A stretch of 64,000 nucleotides of DNA from a bacterium (GTDB taxonomy: Bacteria; J088; JAWLBW01), in the NCBI GenBank assembly GCA_041690355.1, contig JAWLHK010000007.1:1-64000 (forward strand), read 5' to 3'. The position numbers and the translations under genes are program-made. Position 1 is the stretch's first letter, and each line of letters begins with the position of its first letter. The notes under the pieces were generated by a model. That model was not told the origin of the DNA and did no database searches. It was given only the letters and a program-made list of their open reading frames with translations. Of the stretch, positions 37,058 to 62,228 are shown in pieces.

Positions 37058-37489
37058 TTACGCGATTTCCGATTGCACGCCTCCGAGGCGGATGAACTCA
37101 TCGAGCGTCATGTTGCGCACGAAGTCGACGAGCTGCTGATTGAGCATCCGCATGGAGCTGCGGATCGAACAATGACCGATAAGGCCGCAGCACCCGGTCT
37201 CACGCGCCTCGCAGCAGGGGGTCAGGTTCATGGGCCCTTCGACGGCCGAGACGACCTCGCCCAGGCGGATCTTGCCGACGGCCTGTTCGAGCGTGTAGCC
37301 GCCCGTGGCCCCCCGGCGCGTGGCGATGAGGCCGTTGCGCGCCAGCGACTTGAGGATATTCGCCGTCAACGAGAGGGGAATCGCGTTATGTTCGGCGATT
37401 TCCCGGGCGCTCACCGGCGTACCCGTCTTGCCGTGCATATAGACGAGGGCGATGAGGCTGTACTCGACTTTGCGCGTGACCTGGAACAT
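37058..37489 (-). CDS. iscR: Rrf2 family regulator (IscR-like)
   Basis: EIAE..IP..L, RRGATGGYTL, AVEG, Cys-rich C-terminus; first gene of the isc operon. Confidence 0.8.
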   Translation of the reverse strand: MFQVTRKVEYSLIALVYMHGKTGTPVSAREIAEHNAIPLSLTANILKSLARNGLIATRRGATGGYTLEQAVGKIRLGEVVSAVEGPMNLTPCCEARETGCCGLIGHCSIRSSMRMLNQQLVDFVRNMTLDEFIRLGGVQSEIA

Positions 37490-37492
37490 GCA

Positions 37493-37526
37493 ATTGGCAC
37501 CGTTTTAGTACCATTTCATCATACCA
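37493..37526 (-). promoter_or_regulatory. Extended -10 (TGgTATGAT) plus imperfect palindrome, candidate Rrf2 operator
   Basis: ATTGGCAC-N7-GTACCATT at 37493-37515, between the -10 element and the ATG. Confidence 0.45.
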
Positions 37527-37535
37527 GATCCGCAA

Positions 37536-37566
37536 ATTGACGATTTACGATTGACGATTGACGATT
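37536..37566. repeat. TTGACGA heptamer array (4+ units)
   Basis: TTGACGA TTTACGA TTGACGA TTGACGA TT. Confidence 0.9.
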
Positions 37567-37569
37567 TTC

Positions 37570-37909
37570 AGAAAAAAAACCAGTCTTGTCCAGAATCGGT
37601 TCAGCGCGTGACCGTTCGGCCTGAGGAGCCGGGCCTTGGAAATCGAGGTTCAATTCGGACGGCATCGTCTCGCAAGGTTGTCGGCCCCGGCGTCTCGAAG
37701 GCTCAGAGCCGCATGAACACCGGGATCCAGAGCTTCAGAACACGCAATTGCTGAGGTGGCGAGCAAGATCCTGCAGACATTCTGACCCCTCGACAGGCGG
37801 GGCGACAGGATCAGCGGAATCTCAGAATTCCAGCTGCCATCTGTTCCCTTTCCTGGACAGCACTGTAAAAAACCAGGAAAGAACCAAGGCGGCGCTTGCC
37901 AGGGTCCGC
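37570..37909 (-). pseudogene. Possible decayed four-helix-bundle gene remnant
   Basis: No credible intact ORF; minus-strand fragments ERTL.., DSADPVAPPVEG, DLARHLS, IACSEA loosely echo the family; lies between inverted heptamer arrays. Confidence 0.25.
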
Positions 37910-37937
37910 TCAATCGTCAATTGTCAATCGTCAATCG
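37910..37937. repeat. TCAATCG heptamer array (4 units), inverted partner of the 37536 array
   Basis: TCAATCG TCAATTG TCAATCG TCAATCG; contains the epimerase stop codon. Confidence 0.9.
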
Positions 37938-38926
37938 AGGTAGCGGTTTTCGCGGAGCCAGGCGTAGGCGCGCATGATGGCGTCATCGATGGGGCGGGGC
38001 GCGAAACCCAGCTCGCGCGTCGCCTTCGCGTGGCTGAAGTGGAAGTAGTAGCGGCTCGCGCGCGCGAGCGTCAGGTCGAGACGCGGCTCGCGGCCGCTCA
38101 TGCGCCCCGACCACTGGCCTCCGAGCCCCCCCATCCAGACAAAGGGATAGGGGATGCGCGTGCGCGGCGCCCGTGCCCCGACGAGCGAGGCGATACGCTC
38201 CAGCACCGCCTGGTGCGTCAGGTTCTCGCGGGTGAGGATATACCGCTCTCCCCGGCGCCCCTTTTCCCAGGCGAGAATCTGCCCGGCACAGACGTCCTCG
38301 ACGTCGACGTAGGAACTGCCGCCGCGCACGAAGCCGGGAACCTTGCCGCGCACGACCTCGACGATCATCCGCCCGATGTTCGGCCGCACATCCCAGCTGC
38401 CGAACATGGAGCCGGGGTTCACGATGACGACGTCCTGCCCGGCGGCCGCGGCCTCGCGGCAGACGTCTTCGGCCGCGCGCTTGGTAATGGCGTAGTGAAA
38501 GGGAAACCGATCGAGGTTGAACGGCGTCTCTTCGTCGGCCGTCACGCCGGGCTCGAGCGAGCCGGCCACCGCCGATACCGTGCTGGTGTGCACCACGCGC
38601 GGCACACCCGCCTTGAAAGCGGCGACGAGCACGTTGCGAGTTCCCTCGACATTGGTGCGCCACATCTCGCCCGGATCCGGAACGAACATGCGCGTATCGC
38701 CCGCGACGTGAAAGACGACGTCGCAGGCGCGCATGGGCCCCTCGAGGCTGGCGGGATCGCGTACGTCGCCCTGAGTGTACTCGACGTCGAGCCCTTCGAG
38801 CGGAACCCGCCGGCTGCCGGGACGCACGAACACGCGCACCCGGACGCCGCGCGCCAGCAGCGCGCGCACGAGGTTGGCGCCGACGAATCCGGTGGCGCCG
38901 GTGACGAAAGCCCGGGGTGCAGCCAT
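37931..38926 (-). CDS. NAD-dependent epimerase/dehydratase (dihydroflavonol reductase/HpnA-like extended SDR)
   Basis: TGATGFVG, NVEGT, HTST, YAITK. Confidence 0.88.
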   Translation of the reverse strand: MAAPRAFVTGATGFVGANLVRALLARGVRVRVFVRPGSRRVPLEGLDVEYTQGDVRDPASLEGPMRACDVVFHVAGDTRMFVPDPGEMWRTNVEGTRNVLVAAFKAGVPRVVHTSTVSAVAGSLEPGVTADEETPFNLDRFPFHYAITKRAAEDVCREAAAAGQDVVIVNPGSMFGSWDVRPNIGRMIVEVVRGKVPGFVRGGSSYVDVEDVCAGQILAWEKGRRGERYILTRENLTHQAVLERIASLVGARAPRTRIPYPFVWMGGLGGQWSGRMSGREPRLDLTLARASRYYFHFSHAKATRELGFAPRPIDDAIMRAYAWLRENRYLD

Positions 38927-53323: not shown

Positions 53324-54280
53324 TCAGGCGGCCCGCCGCCTGCCGGTGGCGGGCCGTTCGCCGCCATGCTCGACGTACCATTGATAAGTCTCGGCGATCC
53401 CTTCGCGAAGACCGATGCGCGGCCGCCATCCCAGGGCACCGAGGCGGCCGACGTGAAGCAGCTTTCGCGGCGTGCCGTCCGGCTTACCGGCGTCCCAGAA
53501 GATGGGACCGCGGTGGCCGGCGATCTCCTGCACGACCAGGGCCAGATCGCGAATGGCGATGTCTTCTCCGGTCCCCAGGTTGATGAGGTCGTTAGCGTCT
53601 GCGTGCAGCATGAGATGGACGCATGCGTCGGCCGCGTCGTCGGCGTGCAGAAACTCCCGGCGCGGCGCGCCGCTCCCCCAGAGGATCACCGGACGATCGG
53701 GGAGCGCTTCGTGGAACTTTCGGATGAGAGCCGGAAGTACATGGCTCTCTTCCGGGTCGAAGTTGTCGCCCGGACCGTACAGATTCGTCGGCATGGCGCA
53801 CAGGAACTTCGTCCCCAGCTGCCGGTTGTAGGCGCGGCACATCGTAATCCCGGCAATCTTGGCGACCGCATAGGGTTCGTTCGTCGACTCGATCCGGCCC
53901 GTGAGCAGATACTCCTCGCGGATCGGCTGGGCGCAATCGCGCGGATAGATGCAGGACGAACCGAGAAACAGGAGCTTGTGCACCCCGAAGGCCGCCGCCG
54001 CGTCGATGACGTTGGTCTGAATCTGAAGATTATCGCGGATGAATTCCGCCGGCCGCGTCTGGTTGGCCCAGATGCCGCCGACGCGGGCGGCCGCGAGAAA
54101 GACGTATTCGGGCTTGTCCCGCTGAAAGAGCCGGTCGACCTTGGCGCGGTCGCGCAGATCGACTTCGGCCGAAGACCGCAGGATGAGATTCCGGTAGCCC
54201 AGCGCCGTGAGGCGCCGCGCGATGGCAGAGCCGACCAGGCCCCGATGCCCGGCCACGAAGATCCGGCTGTTGAACTGCAT
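53324..54280 (-). CDS. fcl: GDP-L-fucose synthase (copy 1)
   Basis: [43 protein letters not shown]. Confidence 0.93.
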   Translation of the reverse strand: MQFNSRIFVAGHRGLVGSAIARRLTALGYRNLILRSSAEVDLRDRAKVDRLFQRDKPEYVFLAAARVGGIWANQTRPAEFIRDNLQIQTNVIDAAAAFGVHKLLFLGSSCIYPRDCAQPIREEYLLTGRIESTNEPYAVAKIAGITMCRAYNRQLGTKFLCAMPTNLYGPGDNFDPEESHVLPALIRKFHEALPDRPVILWGSGAPRREFLHADDAADACVHLMLHADANDLINLGTGEDIAIRDLALVVQEIAGHRGPIFWDAGKPDGTPRKLLHVGRLGALGWRPRIGLREGIAETYQWYVEHGGERPATGRRRAA

Positions 54281-54394: not shown

Positions 54395-54423
54395 ATTCCT
54401 GATTCTTGATTCTTGATTCCTGA
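54395..54423. repeat. ATTCYTG heptamer array (4 units)
   Basis: ATTCCTG ATTCTTG ATTCTTG ATTCCTG. Confidence 0.9.
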
Positions 54424-54459: not shown

Positions 54460-55839
54460 TCAGCGGCCGTAGCGGTCGAGCAGGCGCACCACGTCTTCGA
54501 GCTGCGGGGTGCTCACCTCGAGCACGCGGCAGTCTTCGACGGCTTCCATCTGGTGCACGGTTTTGGTGCGGATGTGGAAACTCTCGCCCGGCTGCATGAT
54601 CCGCTCTTCCAGGTGGTCGGGATCGGTGCCGAAGCGGAAGCGCAGCGAGCCCGTCAGCACGTGAATCGTCTCGTCCTTCTCGCGGTGATACTGCACGCTG
54701 AGACTCTCGCCCTTGCGGATGGTCAGCGTCTTGCCGACATACGACGGCGTTTCAGCCCAGATGAGTTCCTCGCCCCACGGTTTCGGAACGACGCGGGGGA
54801 GCCGGGCTTCTTCGGGGGGCGTCTCGGCGAGTTCGGCCATGGCGCGCGCAACGGCTCCCACGTCCTGCCCCTTGCCCTTGCGCATGATGAGCAGCCCCTC
54901 GTCACCGTCGATGACGAGCACGTCTTCGAGGCCGATGACGGCGACCGGACGGCGCGAGTAGACGTCGACCGACTCCGATTCCACTTCGACCGCGGGCCGG
55001 TTCATGCGGCCGTCGGCGCGCAGGAAGCCGGCCACCGAATCCCACGTACCGACATCGCTCCACGCGAAGCGGGCGGGAACCATGCGGACGTTATCCGCCT
55101 TCTCGAGAACGGCGTAGTCGATGGAGATCTTCGGCAGTTCGGCAAAGCGCGTCTGCAGGTCGGCAGCCGGAAGCGACCAGAGCGCCGACTCTTCGGGCAG
55201 GTAGCGGCGCAGCGCATCGAGAATGGCCCCGGCCTTCCAGAGAAACATGCCGCTGTTCCAGTAGTAATCCCCTGCGGCGAGGTACTGGGTGGCGCGCTCG
55301 AAATCCGGCTTTTCCACGAATGCGCGCACGACGGCCGCGTTCGACTCGACAGGGCCCGCGTGGATGTACCCGTAGCCGGTTTCGGGACCGGTGGGCTGGA
55401 TGCCGAGGGTCACGAGCACGTCTTCGCGGGCGACTTCGAGCGCGGCCTGCAGCGTCGCGAAAAACTGCGCCCGGTCGCCGATGTGATGATCCGCCGGAAG
55501 CACGACCATCCGCGCGTCGTCACCGAATCGTTCGCGCACGAACGCGGCGGCCAGGCCGATGGCCGGCGCGGTGTTGCGGGCGACCGGCTCGGCCAGCACA
55601 GTGGCGCGTTCCTGCAGCCCCAGCTCGCGGATCTGCGCGACGGTCTCCAGGCGGAGACTCTCACCGGTGACGACCACCAGGTGCGCGTAGTCCAGATCGG
55701 CCACGCGACGCACGGTCTCCTGCAGCAGGGTGTGCTCGCCGAACAGCTTCAGGAACTGCTTCGGGGTATCGGGCCGGCTGAGGGGCCACAGGCGCGTACC
55801 GGAACCGCCGGCGAGAATGACAGGGACTACGGACGACAT
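54460..55839 (-). CDS. manC: Mannose-1-phosphate guanylyltransferase with C-terminal cupin (copy 2)
   Basis: Same motifs as copy 1; start MSSVVPV after a GAGG SD. Confidence 0.88.
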   Translation of the reverse strand: MSSVVPVILAGGSGTRLWPLSRPDTPKQFLKLFGEHTLLQETVRRVADLDYAHLVVVTGESLRLETVAQIRELGLQERATVLAEPVARNTAPAIGLAAAFVRERFGDDARMVVLPADHHIGDRAQFFATLQAALEVAREDVLVTLGIQPTGPETGYGYIHAGPVESNAAVVRAFVEKPDFERATQYLAAGDYYWNSGMFLWKAGAILDALRRYLPEESALWSLPAADLQTRFAELPKISIDYAVLEKADNVRMVPARFAWSDVGTWDSVAGFLRADGRMNRPAVEVESESVDVYSRRPVAVIGLEDVLVIDGDEGLLIMRKGKGQDVGAVARAMAELAETPPEEARLPRVVPKPWGEELIWAETPSYVGKTLTIRKGESLSVQYHREKDETIHVLTGSLRFRFGTDPDHLEERIMQPGESFHIRTKTVHQMEAVEDCRVLEVSTPQLEDVVRLLDRYGR

Positions 55840-55880
55840 GGAATAATCCTCTCTGGCCCGTTCACTGTACCATCCCGGCG

Positions 55881-57092
55881 TTACCCCTGACCAAGCGTGG
55901 CCGGGGGAACTGCGTCCGACGCGCGCCGCGCCGCGAGCCGAATTCCACCCGGCCGCCCGAGCCAGAAGACTGAAAGCCCGAACCACGCCCACGTAAGGAT
56001 GTCGTCGAGGCGCAAAGGGGACCACGCCGAAAACCAGAAGATTCCGAGGAGCATGGTCAGGCCGAGGCGGGCCGCCGTGGAATCGGCGGCGGCGCGCAGG
56101 AGCCAGGGGAAGAAGAAGAGGAGAATTCCGAGGCGGTAGTCGAAATGATTCCCCAGCACAAAGACCCCCGCGAACAGCCCGGCGCCCATCATGGCGAGAA
56201 CGCCGTCGAGCGGGCGCTCTGCCGGGGGGACGAAGAACGACGTCCGCATGCGGCGGGCCAGCGCCAGGGCGACGACGGCGACAATGGCGGCAAGCACTGC
56301 GGAAACTGCGGAAAGATACGCGGCGTCGACGCGAAGGATCTCGAGGAGCCGGGCGGGGAGCACGCGCGAGCCGAACGAGAACCAGGTCGCCCGGGGAACG
56401 GCGGCGCCGATCAGGCGGATATCTTCCAGATTGACGACGACGTAGACGCCGAAGGCCAGCGCCAGAACCATGCCCAGCCGGAGGGCCCATTCGCGCGGAA
56501 TCTGCCGCAGGGCGCTCGCGCCGAAGATGGGAAACAGCTTCAGGGCCCCGGCCGTGAAGAGAATGGCCGTTCCGGTTCCGTAGCGGGAACGCGAGAGGGC
56601 GCGTCCGGCCAGAATCAGCACGGTGAACATGAGGATATCGATATTCCCCCGTTCGACCCCGAGCATGATGGGCGGCGAAAGCAGCGCCGCCCCGAACAGA
56701 AGCCCCTGCCACCAGAGGAGCGGACCGGCCATCCACAGGACCGCCGCAAGAAACAGCGCCCCGAGGACGACGCCGACGGGGTTCGTGTGCGCGACCGTGA
56801 GCCCGGCACCCTGCCAGATGGAAATCCAGACGCGTGGATAGTTCATGCGCCGCTTCCACGGATCGCAGGGGTTCGTGCGCAGGACGTCGAGCCCGCGGGC
56901 GGCACACTCGGCTCCCGTGCTGATGTTCCGCAGATCGGCAAATGCGGGAGAGCGGGTCGGCACGCCCATGCGGTCCCAGGCGCGCAGCTCCGGACGCAGC
57001 ACGTGCCCGTAAAGCACGATGCCGAAGTAGATCAGCAGCATCGCCAGGGCAATCAGGCGGCCATCCAGGAATTTACGATTGACGATTGACAA
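55881..57092 (-). CDS. Multi-pass membrane protein, GT-C fold glycosyltransferase (GT87/DUF2029-like)
   Basis: FADL, MNYP, ERGNID, LKLFP motifs and many transmembrane segments; true start uncertain because the first codons (SIVNR) come from the heptamer array. Confidence 0.65.
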   Translation of the reverse strand: MSIVNRKFLDGRLIALAMLLIYFGIVLYGHVLRPELRAWDRMGVPTRSPAFADLRNISTGAECAARGLDVLRTNPCDPWKRRMNYPRVWISIWQGAGLTVAHTNPVGVVLGALFLAAVLWMAGPLLWWQGLLFGAALLSPPIMLGVERGNIDILMFTVLILAGRALSRSRYGTGTAILFTAGALKLFPIFGASALRQIPREWALRLGMVLALAFGVYVVVNLEDIRLIGAAVPRATWFSFGSRVLPARLLEILRVDAAYLSAVSAVLAAIVAVVALALARRMRTSFFVPPAERPLDGVLAMMGAGLFAGVFVLGNHFDYRLGILLFFFPWLLRAAADSTAARLGLTMLLGIFWFSAWSPLRLDDILTWAWFGLSVFWLGRPGGIRLAARRASDAVPPATLGQG

Positions 57093-57105
57093 TTGACGAT
57101 TTACG
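57070..57105. repeat. TTGACGA heptamer array (5 units)
   Basis: TTTACGA TTGACGA TTGACAA TTGACGA TTTACG; contains the stop codon of fcl copy 2. Confidence 0.9.
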
Positions 57106-58027
57106 GGACGGACGTCTCATGCTGCAGGAACCATTCGTAGGCCGAGCGGATGCCTTCGCGCAGCGGAATGCGGTGTTTCCAGCCGAGGGCGTGGAGGCGA
57201 TCGACGTTGAGCAGCTTGCGCGGCGTGCCGTCGGGCTTGCTCGTATCCCAGACGAGCTCGCCCCTGTGCCCGACGACCTCCTGCACGAGCTCGGCCAGTT
57301 CGCGGATGGTCACGTCTTCACCGGTGCCGATGTTGACGATGTCCGACCCCTCGTAGGTCTCCATGAGGTGCACGCAGGCGTCGGCCAGGTCGTCGGCGTG
57401 CAGGAATTCCCGCCGCGGCGCGCCGGTGCCCCACACGGTCACCGGCCGGTCGGGAAGCGCCTCGTGAAACTTGCGTATCAGGGCCGGGAGCACGTGGCTC
57501 GTCTGCAGATCGAAATTGTCATTCGGCCCGTAGAGGTTCGTCGGCATGACGCTCAGGAAGCGCGTCCCATGCTGCCGATTGTACGACTGGCACATGACGA
57601 TGCCTGCGATTTTCGCTACGGCATACGGCTCGTTGGTCTTCTCGAGCGGACCCGTCAACAGATATTCCTCGCGGATGGGCTGGGGGCAGTCGCGCGGATA
57701 GATGCAGGACGATCCGAGGAACAGAAGCTTCTGCACGCCGTGTCGCCACGCCGCATCGATGATGTTCGTCTCGATCAGCAGATTGTCGCGGATGAAGTCT
57801 GCCGGGTAGGTGTTGTTCGCCAGAATTCCGCCGACCTTCGCGGCGGCCACGTAGACCTGCTCCGGCTTCTCGGCGGCAAAGAAGGCCTCGACGGCGGCGG
57901 CGTCGCGCAGATCCAGTTCCGCCGACGTCCGCAGCAGCAGCCGGTCATGGCCGCGCGCCATCAGATTGCGCACGAGCGCCGAGCCGACGAGTCCGCGGTG
58001 GCCGGCAATAAAGATCCGAGAAGTCAT
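57101..58027 (-). CDS. fcl: GDP-L-fucose synthase (copy 2)
   Basis: [39 protein letters not shown]. Confidence 0.94.
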
Positions 58028-58056
58028 CAGTCGTAAGTCGTAAGTCGTAAGTCGGT
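58022..58056. repeat. AGTCGTA heptamer array (5 units), left arm of the four-helix-bundle cassette
   Basis: AGTCATC AGTCGTA AGTCGTA AGTCGTA AGTCGGT; the first unit contains the fcl start codon. Confidence 0.9.
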
Positions 58057-58094
58057 AAAAAAACCGGGGGAATATTCATATTGCTGCTTTTTCG

Positions 58095-58124
58095 TTGACA
58101 TTTCCACGGACCCTGCACTATAAG
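58095..58124 (+). promoter_or_regulatory. Near-consensus sigma70 promoter of the four-helix-bundle gene (probably leaderless)
   Basis: TTGACA-18 bp-TATAAG ending 7 nt before ATG 58132. Confidence 0.6.
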
Positions 58125-58131
58125 AGGCGGT

Positions 58132-58536
58132 ATGACAACCATCCGCCGTTTCGAAGATAGCCTCGCATGGCAGAAGGCAAACGCTCTCTCCGCGTTTGTC
58201 CACCGTCTCTCGGATAGAAAGGCATGGGGGCGCGACTGGTCCCTTCGAGAGCAGATTCGGTCGGCTGCCGGGTCCGTACCGGGAAACATCGCCGAGGGCT
58301 TCAACAGCGGAGGCGACCGTCACTTCCGACATTACCTCCGCATCGCAAGGGCATCGGCGGGTGAAGTTCGTGCTCACGCATACACCGCGCACCATATCGG
58401 GTACCTGTCCGATGAGGAACTGAGTTCAATCTGCAGCGCCAGCCACGAGTGCGAACGCCTGATCACCGGATTCATCAATTACCTGACGCGTTGCCTGGAA
58501 CAACTGGAAACCGACGCAGAGGAAAGCAGTTCATGA
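58132..58536 (+). CDS. Four-helix-bundle protein (23S rRNA intervening-sequence protein/bAvd-like, TIGR02436-type)
   Basis: FEDSLAWQKA, LREQIRSAAGSVPGNIAEG, FRHYLRIARASAGEV, IGYL. Confidence 0.9.
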   Translation: MTTIRRFEDSLAWQKANALSAFVHRLSDRKAWGRDWSLREQIRSAAGSVPGNIAEGFNSGGDRHFRHYLRIARASAGEVRAHAYTAHHIGYLSDEELSSICSASHECERLITGFINYLTRCLEQLETDAEESSS

Positions 58537-58563
58537 TCACCGGTTCACAATGAGCAACCTGTC

Positions 58564-58597
58564 ACTGAAGACTGAAGACTGGCGACTTACGACTGAG
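58564..58597. repeat. ACTnnnG heptamer array (5 units), right arm of the cassette
   Basis: ACTGAAG ACTGAAG ACTGGCG ACTTACG ACTGAG; contains the gmd stop codon. Confidence 0.85.
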
Positions 58598-59663
58598 CCC
58601 GATGACCCGCCGCTATCACTTGTTCTTCCTTGGCCCACTTGATATCCTCGCGAACCATCTCGGCGCATAGCTCCTCCACGCTGGTCTTCGCCTCCCAGCC
58701 GAGCTTCTCCTTCGCCTTCGAAGGATCGCCGAGCAGCGTCTCGACTTCGGTCGGGCGGAAGTAGCGCGGATCCACTTCGACGAGCACCTTGCCGGTCTTT
58801 GCGTCGCGCCCCTTCTCCTCCACACCCTTCCCTTCCCATTCCAACTGGATATCGACGTGCTCGAAGGACGCCTCGACGAAGCGGCGGACAGAGATCTGGC
58901 GGCCGGTGGCCAGCACGAAATCCTCGGGTTCCGGCAGCTGCAGCATCCGCCACATGCCGTCGACGTAATCACGGGCGTGCCCCCAGTCGCGCAGGCTGTC
59001 GAGATTTCCCAGATACAGCTTGCCCTGCATCCCGAGATGGATGCGGGCGACGGCGCGCGTAATCTTGCGCGTGACGAAGGTCTCGCCGCGCACGGGAGAT
59101 TCGTGGTTGAACAGTATCCCGTTGCAGGCGTACATGCCGTAGGCTTCGCGGTAGTTCACCGTGATCCAGTAGGCATACAGCTTCGCCGCCGCATACGGAC
59201 TGCGCGGATAAAACGGCGTCGTCTCCTTCTGCGGCGTCTCCTGCACCTTGCCGAAGAGCTCCGACGTGGATGCCTGATAGAACCGGGTCTTCTGCTCGAG
59301 GTTCAGGATGCGGATCGCTTCGAGAAGCCGCAGGGTGCCCACGGCGTCGGCGTTGGCCGTGTATTCCGCCGTCTCGAAGCTGACCTGCACGTGGCTCTGG
59401 GCGGCCAGGTTGTAGACCTCGTCGGGCTGCACTTCCTGCACGATCCGGATGAGGTTCGTGCTGTCGGTCATGTCGCCGTAGTGCAGGAAGAAGCGCGGGT
59501 CGTCGATATGCGGATCCACGTAGAGGTGGTCGATGCGCCCGGTGTTGAACGACGACGATCGCCGCTTCACCCCGTGCACGACGTACCCCTTCTTCAGCAG
59601 CAGTTCCGCCAGATAGGAACCGTCCTGCCCGGTCACGCCGGTGATCAATGCTACTTTTGCCAT
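58587..59663 (-). CDS. gmd: GDP-mannose 4,6-dehydratase
   Basis: [55 protein letters not shown]. Confidence 0.97.
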
Positions 59664-59667
59664 TACT

Positions 59668-59701
59668 TGAAGTGACGAGTTACGAGTGACGAGTGACGAA
59701 T
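59668..59701. repeat. AGTGACG heptamer array, direct-repeat copy 1
   Basis: TGAAGTGACGAGTTACGAGTGACGAGTGACGAAT; ends 4 nt upstream of the gmd ATG on the minus strand. Confidence 0.9.
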
Positions 59702-59722
59702 AACTTCTAAATCACTTGTTTC

Positions 59723-59753
59723 TCAAGAATTAAGAATCAGGAATCAGGAATCA
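59723..59753. repeat. TCARGAA heptamer array (4+ units)
   Basis: TCAAGAA TTAAGAA TCAGGAA TCAGGAA TCA; contains the acyl-CoA dehydrogenase stop; inverted relative to the 54395 array. Confidence 0.88.
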
Positions 59754-60932
59754 AACTGCGGCCGGCTGCTTCTTCTTGCCCGGCAGAATGCCCATGAGCT
59801 TGCAGATGATGCCGAGCATGATCTCGTCGGCGCCGCCGCCGATGGAGAGGAGGCGCGAATCGCGCATCGCGCGGGAGACCTGGCTCTCCCACATGTAGCC
59901 CATGCCGCCCCAGTACTGCAGGCAGGAATCGGCCACCTCACGGGTCAGCTTTCCGGCTTTCAGCTTGGCCATCGAGGCCAGCTTGACGACCTCCATGTCG
60001 TCCGGATTATCCACATAGCGCTCGACCGTCGTGTACACCAGGGCGCGCAGGGCCTCGACTTCGGTCTGCAGCTCGGCCAGCTTGAAGTGCACGACCTGAT
60101 TGTCGATGATCGGCTGGCCGAACGTCTTGCGCTCCCGCGTGTACTCGATCGTTCCCTGAATCATGCGATCCATGGAGCGCAGCGAGCTGGCGGCGCCGAA
60201 CAGGCGCTCTTCCTGAAACTGGCGCATCTGCATGATGAAGCCCATGCCTTCTTCGCCGATGCGGTACCGCTGCGGAACGCGGACGTTGTCGAAAAAAATC
60301 TGCGCGGTGTCTGACGACCACATGCCGAGCTTGTGCAGCTTCTGGGCCCGCGAGACGCCGGGCGTGTTCATCGGAACGACGATCATCGTCTTGTTGATGT
60401 GCGGCTTGTCGTCGGAGGTGTTGGCGAGCAGGCAAATCCAGTCGGACTGCATGCCGTTGGTGATCCACATCTTGGTGCCGTTGATGACGTAGTCGTCGCC
60501 GTCCTTCACGGCGGTGGTCTTCAGGCCGGCGACGTCGGACCCGGCGCCCGGCTCACTGACGCCGATGGAGCAGACCATGTCACCGGCGATGGTCGGCGCC
60601 AGGAACTCGCGGCGCAGCTCGTCGGAGCCGAACCGGGCCAGCGCGGGGGTCGCCATGTCGGTCTGCACGCCGATGGCCATCGGCACGCCGCCGCAGTTGC
60701 AGTTGCCGAGTTCTTCGGCGAACGCGACGGCATAGGAGTAATCGAGCCCCATCCCCCCGAACTCGGTCGGCTTGCTGATCCCGAGCAGCCCCAGGTTCCC
60801 CATCTTCTTGAACAGCTGGTGGGCGGGAAAAATGCGATCCTCTTCCCACTGGTCGACATAAGGATTGATTTCCTGTTCGACGAACTTGCGGACGGTCTGG
60901 CGCAGATTCTCGTGTTCGGCCGTGAAAAGCAT
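59751..60932 (-). CDS. Acyl-CoA dehydrogenase, citronellyl-CoA dehydrogenase AtuD-like
   Basis: Acyl-CoA dehydrogenase motifs; GGMGLDYSY..CGGVPMAIGVQTDM.TPALARFGSDELR matches AtuD as I recall it. Confidence 0.88.
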   Translation of the reverse strand: MLFTAEHENLRQTVRKFVEQEINPYVDQWEEDRIFPAHQLFKKMGNLGLLGISKPTEFGGMGLDYSYAVAFAEELGNCNCGGVPMAIGVQTDMATPALARFGSDELRREFLAPTIAGDMVCSIGVSEPGAGSDVAGLKTTAVKDGDDYVINGTKMWITNGMQSDWICLLANTSDDKPHINKTMIVVPMNTPGVSRAQKLHKLGMWSSDTAQIFFDNVRVPQRYRIGEEGMGFIMQMRQFQEERLFGAASSLRSMDRMIQGTIEYTRERKTFGQPIIDNQVVHFKLAELQTEVEALRALVYTTVERYVDNPDDMEVVKLASMAKLKAGKLTREVADSCLQYWGGMGYMWESQVSRAMRDSRLLSIGGGADEIMLGIICKLMGILPGKKKQPAAV

Positions 60933-60996
60933 GGAGCACTCCGGGAGGGGATTTCGAGTATCCGTTGATTCTCCCGTATGGAGCGTCCATTTTCAA

Positions 60997-61030
60997 TGAA
61001 GTGACGAGTGGCGAGTGACGAGTGACGAAT
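60997..61030. repeat. AGTGACG heptamer array, direct-repeat copy 2
   Basis: TGAAGTGACGAGTGGCGAGTGACGAGTGACGAAT; 32 of 34 positions identical to copy 1. Confidence 0.9.
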
Positions 61031-61050
61031 CAAGACCGGAAAAAAGACAC

Positions 61051-61082
61051 AAAAAAGGCCGGCACGAGAGTTCGCGCCGGCC
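61051..61082 (-). terminator. Intrinsic terminator upstream of the atuD-like gene, with no CDS ending before it
   Basis: GGCCGGCGCGA-ACTC-TCGTGCCGGCC-TTTTTT on the minus strand. Confidence 0.7.
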
Positions 61083-61181
61083 GCTCGACAGCCCCATGAG
61101 GGAGGTAAGGCGGGCCATCGGTTCTGAGGGTACCCGCTCGGCAGGTTTTCCGTCGATACCCAAAAATGGCAAACTTCGGGG

Positions 61182-61292
61182 GTCGAGAGTCGAGAGTCCA
61201 GAGTCGAGGGTCCGAGGGTCCGAGGGTTTACCGAAGCGCCTGGGGTCACATGTCGCCGACTCATGACGCATGAGACGCTCGACTCTTGACTC
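61182..61292. repeat. GTCSRGR heptamer array (6 units) plus a short inverted partner at 61278-61292
   Basis: GTCGAGA GTCGAGA GTCCAGA GTCGAGG GTCCGAG GGTCCGAG ... CTCGACTCTTGACTC. Confidence 0.8.
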
Positions 61293-61328
61293 GTCTACGG
61301 GGTATCGTAATGGGGTCTGGACGCACCC

Positions 61329-62228
61329 ATGCAGACCAAGCCCACCGTTTCCGTCATCATCCCCGTCTTTAACGATTATCCGGCGCTCGCCCGCTGCCTG
61401 GCCGCGCTCGAGGCGCAGTCCTACCCGCGCGAGCGCTTCGACATTTTCGTAATTGACAACGGTTCAACGGAACGCGCTCCCCTCCCGGCAATGTCGAAGG
61501 CGACGTTGCTCGAGGAGCCGCGCCCGGGTTCCTTCCGCGCACGGAATGTGGGCATTGCCGCCAGCAAGGGCGAAGTGCTCGCGTTCATCGACTCTGACTG
61601 CCTGCCCGCGCGGGACTGGCTCGAAAACGGGGTCGCCGCCCTGCTCCACTGCAAAGGGCCCGCCTACGTGGCCGGTCGGGTCGTCACGGTGCCCGCCGAT
61701 CCGGAGCATCCGACGCCGACCGAGCTGTACGAAATGTCGACCGCCTTCCCTTTCGACAAACACCTCAAGGATTCGCACTACGGCGGCTCGGGCAACCTGT
61801 TCGTCTGGCGCAGCATCATCGAGGACGTCGGTCCGTTCGACGCAGAGATGCAATCGGGAGGCGACGCGGAATTCGGCCGCCGCGTGTTTCTCGCCGGCTA
61901 CCAGCAGTTCTTTGCAGGCGACGCCGTCGTAAGTCACCCCGCCCGCCGCACGCTGGAAGAACGGCTCATCAAAGCCTACCGCGTGCACGCCGGGGCCCTC
62001 GACCTGATGCGCAAGGGGAATCCGGGGGCGATCGCCATGTACGGAAGCGTGACGAAGCCCTTTCTCCCCCCCGTGCGCAAGCTCCTCAACATCGCCCGCA
62101 CGGACAAGATCCGCGGTCCGGGGGCCAAGGCCAAGGCCATGTCAGTGCAGCTCGCCCTGCACTACGGCCTCGCGTGGGAACACCTGCGCACCACGAAGCT
62201 CGGCAAGCCGCCGCGCGGCGTGCGCTGA
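61329..62228 (+). CDS. Glycosyltransferase family 2
   Basis: VSVIIPVFN, IDNGST, ARNVG, FIDSDC. Confidence 0.9.
   Translation: MQTKPTVSVIIPVFNDYPALARCLAALEAQSYPRERFDIFVIDNGSTERAPLPAMSKATLLEEPRPGSFRARNVGIAASKGEVLAFIDSDCLPARDWLENGVAALLHCKGPAYVAGRVVTVPADPEHPTPTELYEMSTAFPFDKHLKDSHYGGSGNLFVWRSIIEDVGPFDAEMQSGGDAEFGRRVFLAGYQQFFAGDAVVSHPARRTLEERLIKAYRVHAGALDLMRKGNPGAIAMYGSVTKPFLPPVRKLLNIARTDKIRGPGAKAKAMSVQLALHYGLAWEHLRTTKLGKPPRGVR

Follow-up and report, generated by a model that had tools for sequence, protein, structure and literature searches.

A PF05635 four-helix-bundle gene between inverted heptamer arrays, on the opposite strand of a gmd-fcl spacer

The window analyzed here is a stretch of 64,000 nucleotides (nt) from a bacterium (GTDB lineage Bacteria; J088; JAWLBW01), namely positions 1 to 64,000 of contig JAWLHK010000007.1 in assembly GCA_041690355.1. 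At the locus under study, gmd and an fcl-type gene follow each other on the minus strand, and the 559-nt spacer between them holds a small plus-strand gene that is framed by two inverted arrays of tandem heptamers (Table 1). We refer to the small gene and its arrays together as the cassette. A preliminary description, made from the sequence alone, had named an opposite-strand four-helix-bundle gene as the only gene between gmd and fcl. Family matches and a structure model agree with this, and the coordinates given there for genes, arrays, arms and codons all held on re-reading of the sequence. The single long open reading frame (ORF) with a family match in the spacer encodes a 134-residue protein, which matches PF05635 with 85.7 bits (curated cut-off 33.8; E-value 3.1e-24) and TIGR02436 with 87.2 bits (curated cut-off 24; E-value 8e-25). 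Its G+C content at third codon positions (GC3) is 0.652, below the 1st percentile (0.682) of called genes in the genome, where the median is 0.84; gmd and fcl have values of 0.844 and 0.851, respectively.

By sequence, the closest solved relative of the 134-residue protein is 2GSC, a protein from Xanthomonas campestris encoded by XCC0516. An AlphaFold model built with 27 aligned relatives reached a predicted local distance difference test score of 95.4 and consists of helices throughout. Its best superposition in the Protein Data Bank was again with 2GSC (TM-score 0.77/0.91, root-mean-square deviation 1.6–1.7); it also matched 2RLD (TM-score 0.72/0.88) and, more weakly, Avd (4DWL). Entries 2GSC and 2RLD comprise five chains each. 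The Avd matches, which include ribonucleoprotein entries of diversity-generating retroelements (DGRs; 8UB7 and others), had fold E-values far weaker than those for 2GSC and 2RLD. The DGR accessory protein bAvd is a homologous four-helix-bundle pentamer and binds nucleic acid. Unlike a DGR, the cassette has neither a reverse transcriptase ORF nor template/variable repeats among its neighbors in 55000–61500.

Next, we compared gmd-fcl junctions. Genomes and metagenomes gave 160 gmd loci, of which 101 have fcl next on the same strand. The gap has a median of ~27 nt and is at most 150 nt in 93 of these 101 junctions, against which 559 nt is abnormally long. Five junctions measure at least 499 nt. 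Two of them (L187:3545–4392 and L063:4075–4885) carry a GxxExxY gene (TIGR04256; E-values 4.4e-41 and 1.9e-42) of ~126 codons surrounded by inverted CGCAAAG-type heptamers; the others contain a VapBC-like gene pair (named by eye), a glycosyltransferase-like ORF (named by eye) and non-coding repeats. The GxxExxY cassettes thus share the gmd-fcl junction and the inverted heptamers with our locus, but they encode another fold family and have the gene on the sense strand. We noted that the array module is duplicated in the L063 spacer. The genome of the window has two GxxExxY genes, one with direct arrays and the other without arrays; at C11:140038–140388, a GxxExxY gene is flanked by direct GCGGAG-type arrays, which recur several times downstream as a ~100-nt repeat. 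Taken together, the junction lengths and the codon usage of the small gene suggest that the cassette was inserted into the gmd-fcl spacer.

The preliminary description had also reported two inverted arrays of about five heptamers with a perfect 14-bp repeat bracketing the gene, the gmd TAA inside one arm, and the other arm ending on the A of the fcl ATG. A repeat finder and an inverted-repeat search reproduced the arrays, and the codon positions were read directly in the sequence. The arms (58027–58053 and 58570–58596) are 27 nt long, 85% complementary and separated by 516 nt, and their outer ends form a perfect 14-mer, the longest exact inverted match. The gmd TAA (58589..58587) falls within the right arm, and the left arm stops on the A of the fcl ATG (58027..58025).

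A fold of the minus strand of 58010–58610, as had been proposed, produced an end-to-end stem in both the minimum free energy and the centroid structure. The pairing persisted in the ensemble: the mean probability of left-arm/right-arm pairing (partition function, three window sizes) was 0.59–0.71 for the operon strand and 0.68–0.74 for the other strand. The arm duplex has a free energy of –41.6 kcal/mol, compared with –18.5 ± 4.0 kcal/mol for 500 shuffles of one arm (best –33.4). At the predicted base of the stem, GGGUCAUCGG from the last gmd codons pairs with CUGAUGACUU, a segment that includes the fcl AUG. The final eight codons of gmd enter this predicted stem, and most gmd homologues stop matching earlier, at residues 341–350 of 358. 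Therefore, the arms pair thermodynamically, and in silico the ends of the cassette are complementary enough to give the long stem of the host transcript that characterizes an intervening sequence (IVS).

Table 1. Features of the gmd-fcl junction (positions in the 64,000-nt window).
Feature	Position	Strand	Basis
fcl-type GDP-L-fucose synthase (epimerase/reductase family), downstream host gene	57101..58027	–	PF01370, 2.6e-68
Predicted stem base, fcl side; includes the fcl AUG (58027..58025)	58019..58029	–	Fold and duplex; pairs with 58598–58608
Left heptamer array, AAGTCGT-type, period 7, 4.9 copies; minus-strand leader directly upstream of the fcl ATG	58021..58054		Tandem Repeats Finder
Promoter-like motif: T-run, TTGACA (58095–58100), 18-nt spacer, TATAAG (58119–58124)	58087..58124	+	Sequence
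PF05635/TIGR02436 four-helix-bundle gene, 134 aa	58132..58536	+	Profile matches, codon usage, fold model
Right heptamer array, ACTGAAG/ACTTACG units, period 7, 4.7 copies; in opposite orientation to the left one	58564..58596		Tandem Repeats Finder
gmd (GDP-mannose 4,6-dehydratase), upstream host gene	58587..59663	–	PF16363, 4.9e-160
Predicted stem base, gmd side; within the last, non-conserved gmd codons	58597..58608	–	Fold and duplex

We then asked how far this arrangement recurs. Ten PF05635 matches above the cut-off were found in the genome. By eye, inverted short-unit arrays frame all ten loci, one of them truncated on one side, and the repeat unit differs between cassette types. An inverted-flank score, defined as the best ungapped inverted match between the 330-nt flanks of a gene, reached the threshold of at least 16 at 8 of the 10 PF05635 loci and at 10 of 1421 other genes of at most 250 residues in the same genome. 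The inverted framing of PF05635 genes is more than chance. The gmd-fcl locus is the only one of the ten in which the gene lies antisense inside a co-directional gene pair, hence antisense placement is not a rule. With one duplicated type left aside, the paralogues share 23–70% identity.

The lineage is thinly sampled, with one genome of the same family (G001, a sister genus) and three more of the phylum. Four of the five PF05635 genes of G001 are framed by inverted 7- or 8-mer arrays, again of other sequences. The remaining gene (L084, G001:C279) has no arrays and begins only a few bases beyond the stop codon of a neighbor whose end resembles, by eye, a ComM/YifB-type Mg-chelatase. We also noted that another G001 cassette (L085, G001:C101), with inverted AATGCCC-type arrays, sits between two stretches that by eye resemble Rhs/YD-repeat C-terminal cores.

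Over a wider sample, PF05635 is present in 48 of 121 genomes, that is, in this genome and in 47 of the 120 from other lineages. The other-lineage survey covered 60 loci with 500-nt flanks, of which L138, with 870 nt at a contig end, was too short and was not scored. The inverted-flank score exceeded the 99th percentile (13) of the null at 44 of the 59 remaining loci; this null pairs flanks across loci of different genomes, and a within-genome control covers the genome of the window only. The best period among the 44 loci was 7 in 35 and 8 in 6. Their arms have a median length of 34.5 nt and end ~59 nt short of the start and ~55 nt past the end of the Pfam match, and the 5' (left) arm has more G than C in 34 loci, compared with 6 of the opposite composition. 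No locus of the 60 falls within an rRNA gene, and six are adjacent to tRNA genes (L106, L128, L133, L137, L141 and L142), five of them on the tRNA strand; in L128 the PF05635 gene is located between same-strand tRNAs, and in L133 an array begins 7 nt after a tRNA. The survey of TIGR02436/PF05635 genes for inverted 7-mer flanks that the preliminary description had called for is thus strongly positive in all three samples. Collectively, the anatomy of the cassette, an inverted pair of heptamer arrays around a PF05635 gene, recurs in this genome, in the sister genus and in many lineages.

Heptamer arrays are not special to the cassette. The 4.64-Mb assembly contains 667 period-7 Tandem Repeats Finder rows with at least 3.5 copies, compared with 108 for period 6 and 66 for period 8. 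After merging, 744 arrays with at least three copies remain, of which 684 lie mostly in intergenic sequence, a fraction that makes up ~13% of the genome by rough gene calls. These and the other genome-wide statistics use a crude codon-score gene caller that missed several PF05635 genes, and distances to starts and stops are approximate. Array length peaks at 29–32 nt (median 31) and does not follow a decaying distribution. About five superfamilies can be distinguished among the arrays: ATTGACG-like (298), AGCGCC-like (165), ATTCCTG-like (94), GGACGTC-like (64) and CAGTCGT-like (58). The arms of the gmd-fcl cassette belong to superfamily V, which has 58 arrays dispersed across this genome. For each of the five superfamilies there is one cassette type with arrays of that family at its ends (P = 0.014 if families were drawn by abundance).

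Array orientation is set by position and not by gene direction, and both arms of the gmd-fcl cassette follow this genome-wide rule. Between neighboring arrays in gene-free spacers of at most 900 nt, we counted 153 inward-facing (S...A) and 14 outward-facing (A...S) pairs, and 49 and 46 direct pairs. Among spacers of at least 30 nt, arrays are present in 16% of the co-directional, 30% of the convergent and 16% of the divergent ones. Several more period-7 arrays lie at nearly every gene boundary around the locus (54395–54423, 57071–57105, 59671–59699, 59723–59754, 61000–61028 and 61176–61227); one of these abuts the gmd start codon and one overlaps the fcl stop and the start of the next ORF.

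Density of arrays in the phylum differs with PF05635 content. Two PF05635-bearing genomes have 71 and 37 period-7 arrays per 400 kb, and in the three members without a PF05635 match, samples of 400, 200 and 56 kb contained 0, 0 and 1, respectively; the comparison amounts to a single phylogenetic, family-against-family contrast. The 400-kb sample of G001 holds 37 period-7 arrays, whose families partly match its cassette flanks. Outside this contrast, G008 has nine PF05635 genes, yet only 8 period-7 arrays in 400 kb.

Some arrangements of arrays occur apart from PF05635 genes. Within the window, an inverted pair of ATTGACG-type arrays (37536–37566 and 37910–37937) frames 343 nt without a convincing ORF. 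The interior of 37536–37937 is a ~230-nt dispersed repeat with at least 20 copies of 74–97% identity genome-wide, and an Rfam search of 37400–38000 returned no match. The same repeat is found inside the PF05635 cassette at C26:38021. We considered it as possible cassette cargo and rejected this idea, since its copies are not regularly flanked by arrays. At C14:71786–72099, a 65-nt unit made up of a 31-nt AATCGTC-type array and a 34-nt spacer stands in four to five head-to-tail copies beside an inverted array, and forms a higher-order repeat of array modules. Short gene-free inverted array pairs with loops of 30–250 nt (for example C1:129123–129264, C2:56571–56689 and C8:49793–49896) share an inner motif, GGCAAGRGC...GCYCTTGCC, which is also present at the inner edges of several PF05635 cassettes. 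Finally, the genome encodes three fcl-type paralogues (70–74% identity to the fcl studied here) and a second gmd (77%), for which we list window 53324–54280, C29:32303–33205 and C29:13049–14092; there is no further gmd-fcl pair among them, and the second gmd is not adjacent to an fcl.

The preliminary description had credited the small gene with its own TTGACA-18-TATAAG promoter and fcl with no obvious Shine-Dalgarno (SD) sequence. The promoter-like motif is present. A sigma-70 consensus scan of 57800–58800 on both strands called no promoter, including none for fcl; the scan requires a T at the last –10 position and for this reason missed TATAAG. A terminator scan of the same interval, also on both strands, called none. 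The extended motif CTTTTTNNTTGAC, followed by an 18-nt spacer and TAnnnN, occurs at 10 sites in the genome, 3 of which are upstream of PF05635 genes, and it also precedes a PF05635 gene in G001 (locus L082). A promoter of the small gene at this position is plausible from its sequence. The ATG of the small gene is only 7 nt after TATAAG, so an mRNA started there would be leaderless. As for fcl, no GGAG-like motif was found upstream of it. A 4-mer SD match at –20 to –4 was found for 1501 of 3239 genes in this genome, compared with 535 in a control window, and among the 43 genes with an array abutting the start codon, 5 have one. The missing SD at fcl is thus a property of array-led genes as a class and is not unusual in this genome.

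We next compared the cassette with known systems. ORF-bearing intervening sequences of 23S rRNA genes have been reported for Leptospira as well as for Coxiella. In the Coxiella IVS (PMC4990558), the termini form a 28-bp stem and the loop carries the S23p ORF, with three to four tandem heptamers ahead of it; excision by RNase III has been demonstrated. On that account, our cassette shares with it the protein family, a stem of ~28 bp from inverted termini, 5' heptamers, and carriage in a longer host transcript. The two differ in their hosts and in the strand of the ORF: helix 45 of 23S rRNA and a sense ORF in Coxiella, a protein-coding operon spacer and an antisense ORF here. The preliminary description had started from the premise that this family is encoded antisense inside 23S IVSs; for Coxiella this is not supported, as the ORF is described there on the sense strand (PMC4990558). 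The gmd-fcl cassette also has a promoter-like motif of its own, unlike the Coxiella IVS, and it might be excised in a similar way. It lies between gmd and fcl rather than at helix 25 or 45 of a 23S rRNA gene, and we noted that none of the 42 contigs of the assembly contains a 23S rRNA gene, despite a stated completeness of 100%.

Dispersed intergenic heptamers are also familiar from cyanobacteria, where they are known as STRR sequences. Two papers describe further cases. TAACTGA repeats are intergenic in Beggiatoaceae, Cyanobacteria and Bacteroidetes, and stand forward just upstream of SD-less starts and reversed after stops (MacGregor, 2015, PMC4679880). GGGAATC and GGGGAYT heptamers occur in Xanthomonas and Nostoc, with ~186 GGGAATC arrays per Xanthomonas genome and 70–75 convergent inverted pairs (Rehm et al., 2015, PMC4692102). 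Arrays in the genome of the window are likewise tandem 7-mers of few units, mostly intergenic and oriented by the starts and stops of genes, and its family V (ACTGAAG/ACTGACG) resembles TAACTGA. They differ in that several families coexist, each with a PF05635 cassette. In the text of either paper, the terms '23S', 'S23', 'intervening' and 'four helix' are absent, and PF05635 genes are not linked to the repeats.

We consider it probable that the locus is an IVS-type PF05635 cassette with heptamer-array ends and a promoter-like motif of its own, lodged on the opposite strand in the gmd-fcl spacer. If gmd and fcl are transcribed together, the arms of the read-through transcript would close an interrupted stem of ~26 bp and hide the fcl AUG. 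Double-strand-specific processing, as by RNase III in rRNA IVSs, would then cut the stem and yield separate gmd and fcl mRNAs, the latter with its heptamer array as leader, and the insertion would thereby become tolerable. On the analogy of the Coxiella IVS and on thermodynamics, we regard such processing of the arm stem as a serious possibility, a little short of an even one. Compatible with it, and on the unlikely side in our estimate, is a model in which a pentameric product binds the arrays with one heptamer per protomer. Binding of this kind would explain the 7-nt period, the length of about five units and the pattern of one cassette per family.

Several observations weigh against this reading. 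Searches with gmd for an empty site found nothing closer than 77% identity in genomes and 81% in metagenomes, and no close relative, empty site or presence/absence polymorphism was found among these; the fcl of G001 has no gmd beside it. No direct repeat that could be a target-site duplication lies outside the arms. Three near-identical cassettes in the genome looked like evidence for mobility, but their homology continues for more than 300 nt past the right array, and we rejected the idea because the copies lie in larger duplicated segments. The fold of the whole 58010–58610 region has a z-score of only –1.67. Mismatches between the arms of 64 cassettes are G-U-compatible in the sense strand in 108 cases, in the antisense strand in 83 and in neither in 241; the pattern has no clear bias and lends no support to selection on the helix of either RNA strand. 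Most inward-facing array pairs (126 of 153) join different superfamilies and cannot base-pair, hence an RNA stem cannot be the general role of the arrays. The null behind the 44 of 59 other-lineage loci belongs on this side as well, since its pairing of flanks from different genomes leaves the base composition of the individual genomes uncontrolled.

Other explanations were weighed against the same evidence. In REP/REPIN systems, a RAYT gene, which encodes a Y1 transposase, is flanked by inverted short palindromic repeats that are also dispersed between genes. A REPIN/RAYT-like or TRAP-like relationship could hold here, in which the PF05635 pentamer would be the trans-acting partner of one heptamer family that flanks its gene and has spread to tens to hundreds of intergenic sites; the arms would then be protein sites first and an RNA stem second. 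Like a RAYT gene, the PF05635 gene is single-copy with inverted dispersed repeats around it, each repeat family has about one gene type, and the repeats are commoner in convergent spacers. The pairing of the five large superfamilies with one cassette type each, the divergence of the paralogues, the preferred array length, the contrast in array density within the phylum and the partial match of dispersed G001 families to its cassette flanks all speak for such a partnership, as does the 7-nt periodicity kept across lineages, which a plain stem does not need. Unlike REPIN/RAYT, the gene encodes a four-helix bundle instead of a Y1 transposase, and the repeats are tandem heptamers and not palindromes. 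No catalytic activity is known for the PF05635 family; the assembly contains no cassette for an ACGAGTG sub-family of 91 arrays, none of the five PF05635 genes of G001 goes with the commonest array families there, G008 indicates that spread is not obligatory, and the phylum contrast counts only once. We view this explanation as somewhat unlikely. The cassette might instead be a DNA-level mobile element whose inverted arrays are terminal repeats for a recombinase or transposase acting in trans, with RNA pairing incidental. The ends stay inverted with respect to each other even though cassettes differ completely in sequence, the contexts are many and unrelated (including tRNA clusters and the position between Rhs-like repeats), the codon usage of the ORF is atypical, the short gene-free inverted pairs with the shared GGCAAGRGC/GCYCTTGCC motif look like deletion derivatives, and in two other lineages the gmd-fcl junction is occupied by a GxxExxY gene with inverted heptamers. 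No transposase was found within or beside the cassette, a blastn search with the whole cassette matched only itself, and the missing target-site duplication and empty site count here too; in lacking both such a duplication and multiple whole-element copies, the cassette departs from miniature inverted-repeat and other terminal-inverted-repeat transposons. We judge a DNA element unlikely.

Long-range translational coupling, the version put forward in the preliminary description, would have the stem join the gmd stop to the fcl start, so that a ribosome ending gmd would melt the 5' arm and free the fcl AUG. The geometry allows it: the 5' arm includes the end of gmd with its stop codon, the predicted stem base takes up the fcl AUG, and fcl lacks an SD; short gene-free stop-array...array-start modules do exist (for example C10:123480–123589, 3 nt past a stop and 2 nt before a start). 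Yet the 43 genes with start-abutting arrays have no matching upstream arm, arrays are equally frequent in divergent and commoner in convergent than in co-directional spacers, there is no wobble signal for the operon strand, and a 540-nt loop that is itself transcribed in antisense would be a poor coupling device. Coupling is therefore not favored, and we think it improbable. Finally, the arms might be two ordinary intergenic arrays, one trailing gmd and one leading fcl, with the small gene merely between them. Such a coincidence would suit the abundance of intergenic arrays in this genome, the orientation rule that both arms obey, and the distal units of the right arm, which belong to a family common upstream of start codons. 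Matched inverted flanks at PF05635 loci in this genome, in array-poor genomes such as G008 and at most loci elsewhere make it very improbable, as does the finding that neighboring arrays are usually of different families. The IVS-type cassette accordingly remains our preferred account; of the earlier interpretation, a discrete cassette with a promoter-like motif, inverted heptamer ends and pairing arms is supported, and the antisense-IVS premise is not supported for Coxiella.

The locus brings together two puzzles, the role of the S23p/IVS proteins and the origin and role of dispersed heptamers in cyanobacteria, Beggiatoaceae and Xanthomonas. Apart from the role of Avd in DGRs, the S23p or "IVS protein" family is called uncharacterized or without known function in the portions of the literature available, although it is widespread (about two-fifths of the genomes sampled here) and has solved structures. 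A literature search, with most subscription journals outside its reach, found no paper that links PF05635 genes to flanking heptamer arrays. Inverted arrays around nearly every sampled PF05635 gene, together with one cassette for each large array family, make a concrete and testable link between the two puzzles, which would concern binding of arrays by the protein, RNase III processing of array stems and REPIN-like spread.

The gmd-fcl locus is an IVS-like element in an mRNA operon; of greater interest is the wider regularity between PF05635 genes and heptamers. Beyond rRNA, IVS architecture also occurs in mRNA operon spacers and tRNA clusters. At its broadest, the regularity might mean that PF05635 pentamers and tandem-heptamer arrays form one system across bacteria, a proposal that we hold to be unlikely as a whole. 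Each protein type would recognize a heptamer family of its own, with one protomer on each 7-mer and about five 7-mers in an array; the gene would travel framed by two inverted cognate arrays, and in some lineages (here, and perhaps in Xanthomonas, Nostoc and Beggiatoaceae) the arrays would have reached hundreds of gene boundaries, where they would serve as leaders, trailers or processing sites. If this is true, it would give a function to the IVS proteins and to the STRR, TAACTGA and GGGAATC repeats, and the rRNA IVSs would be a special case.

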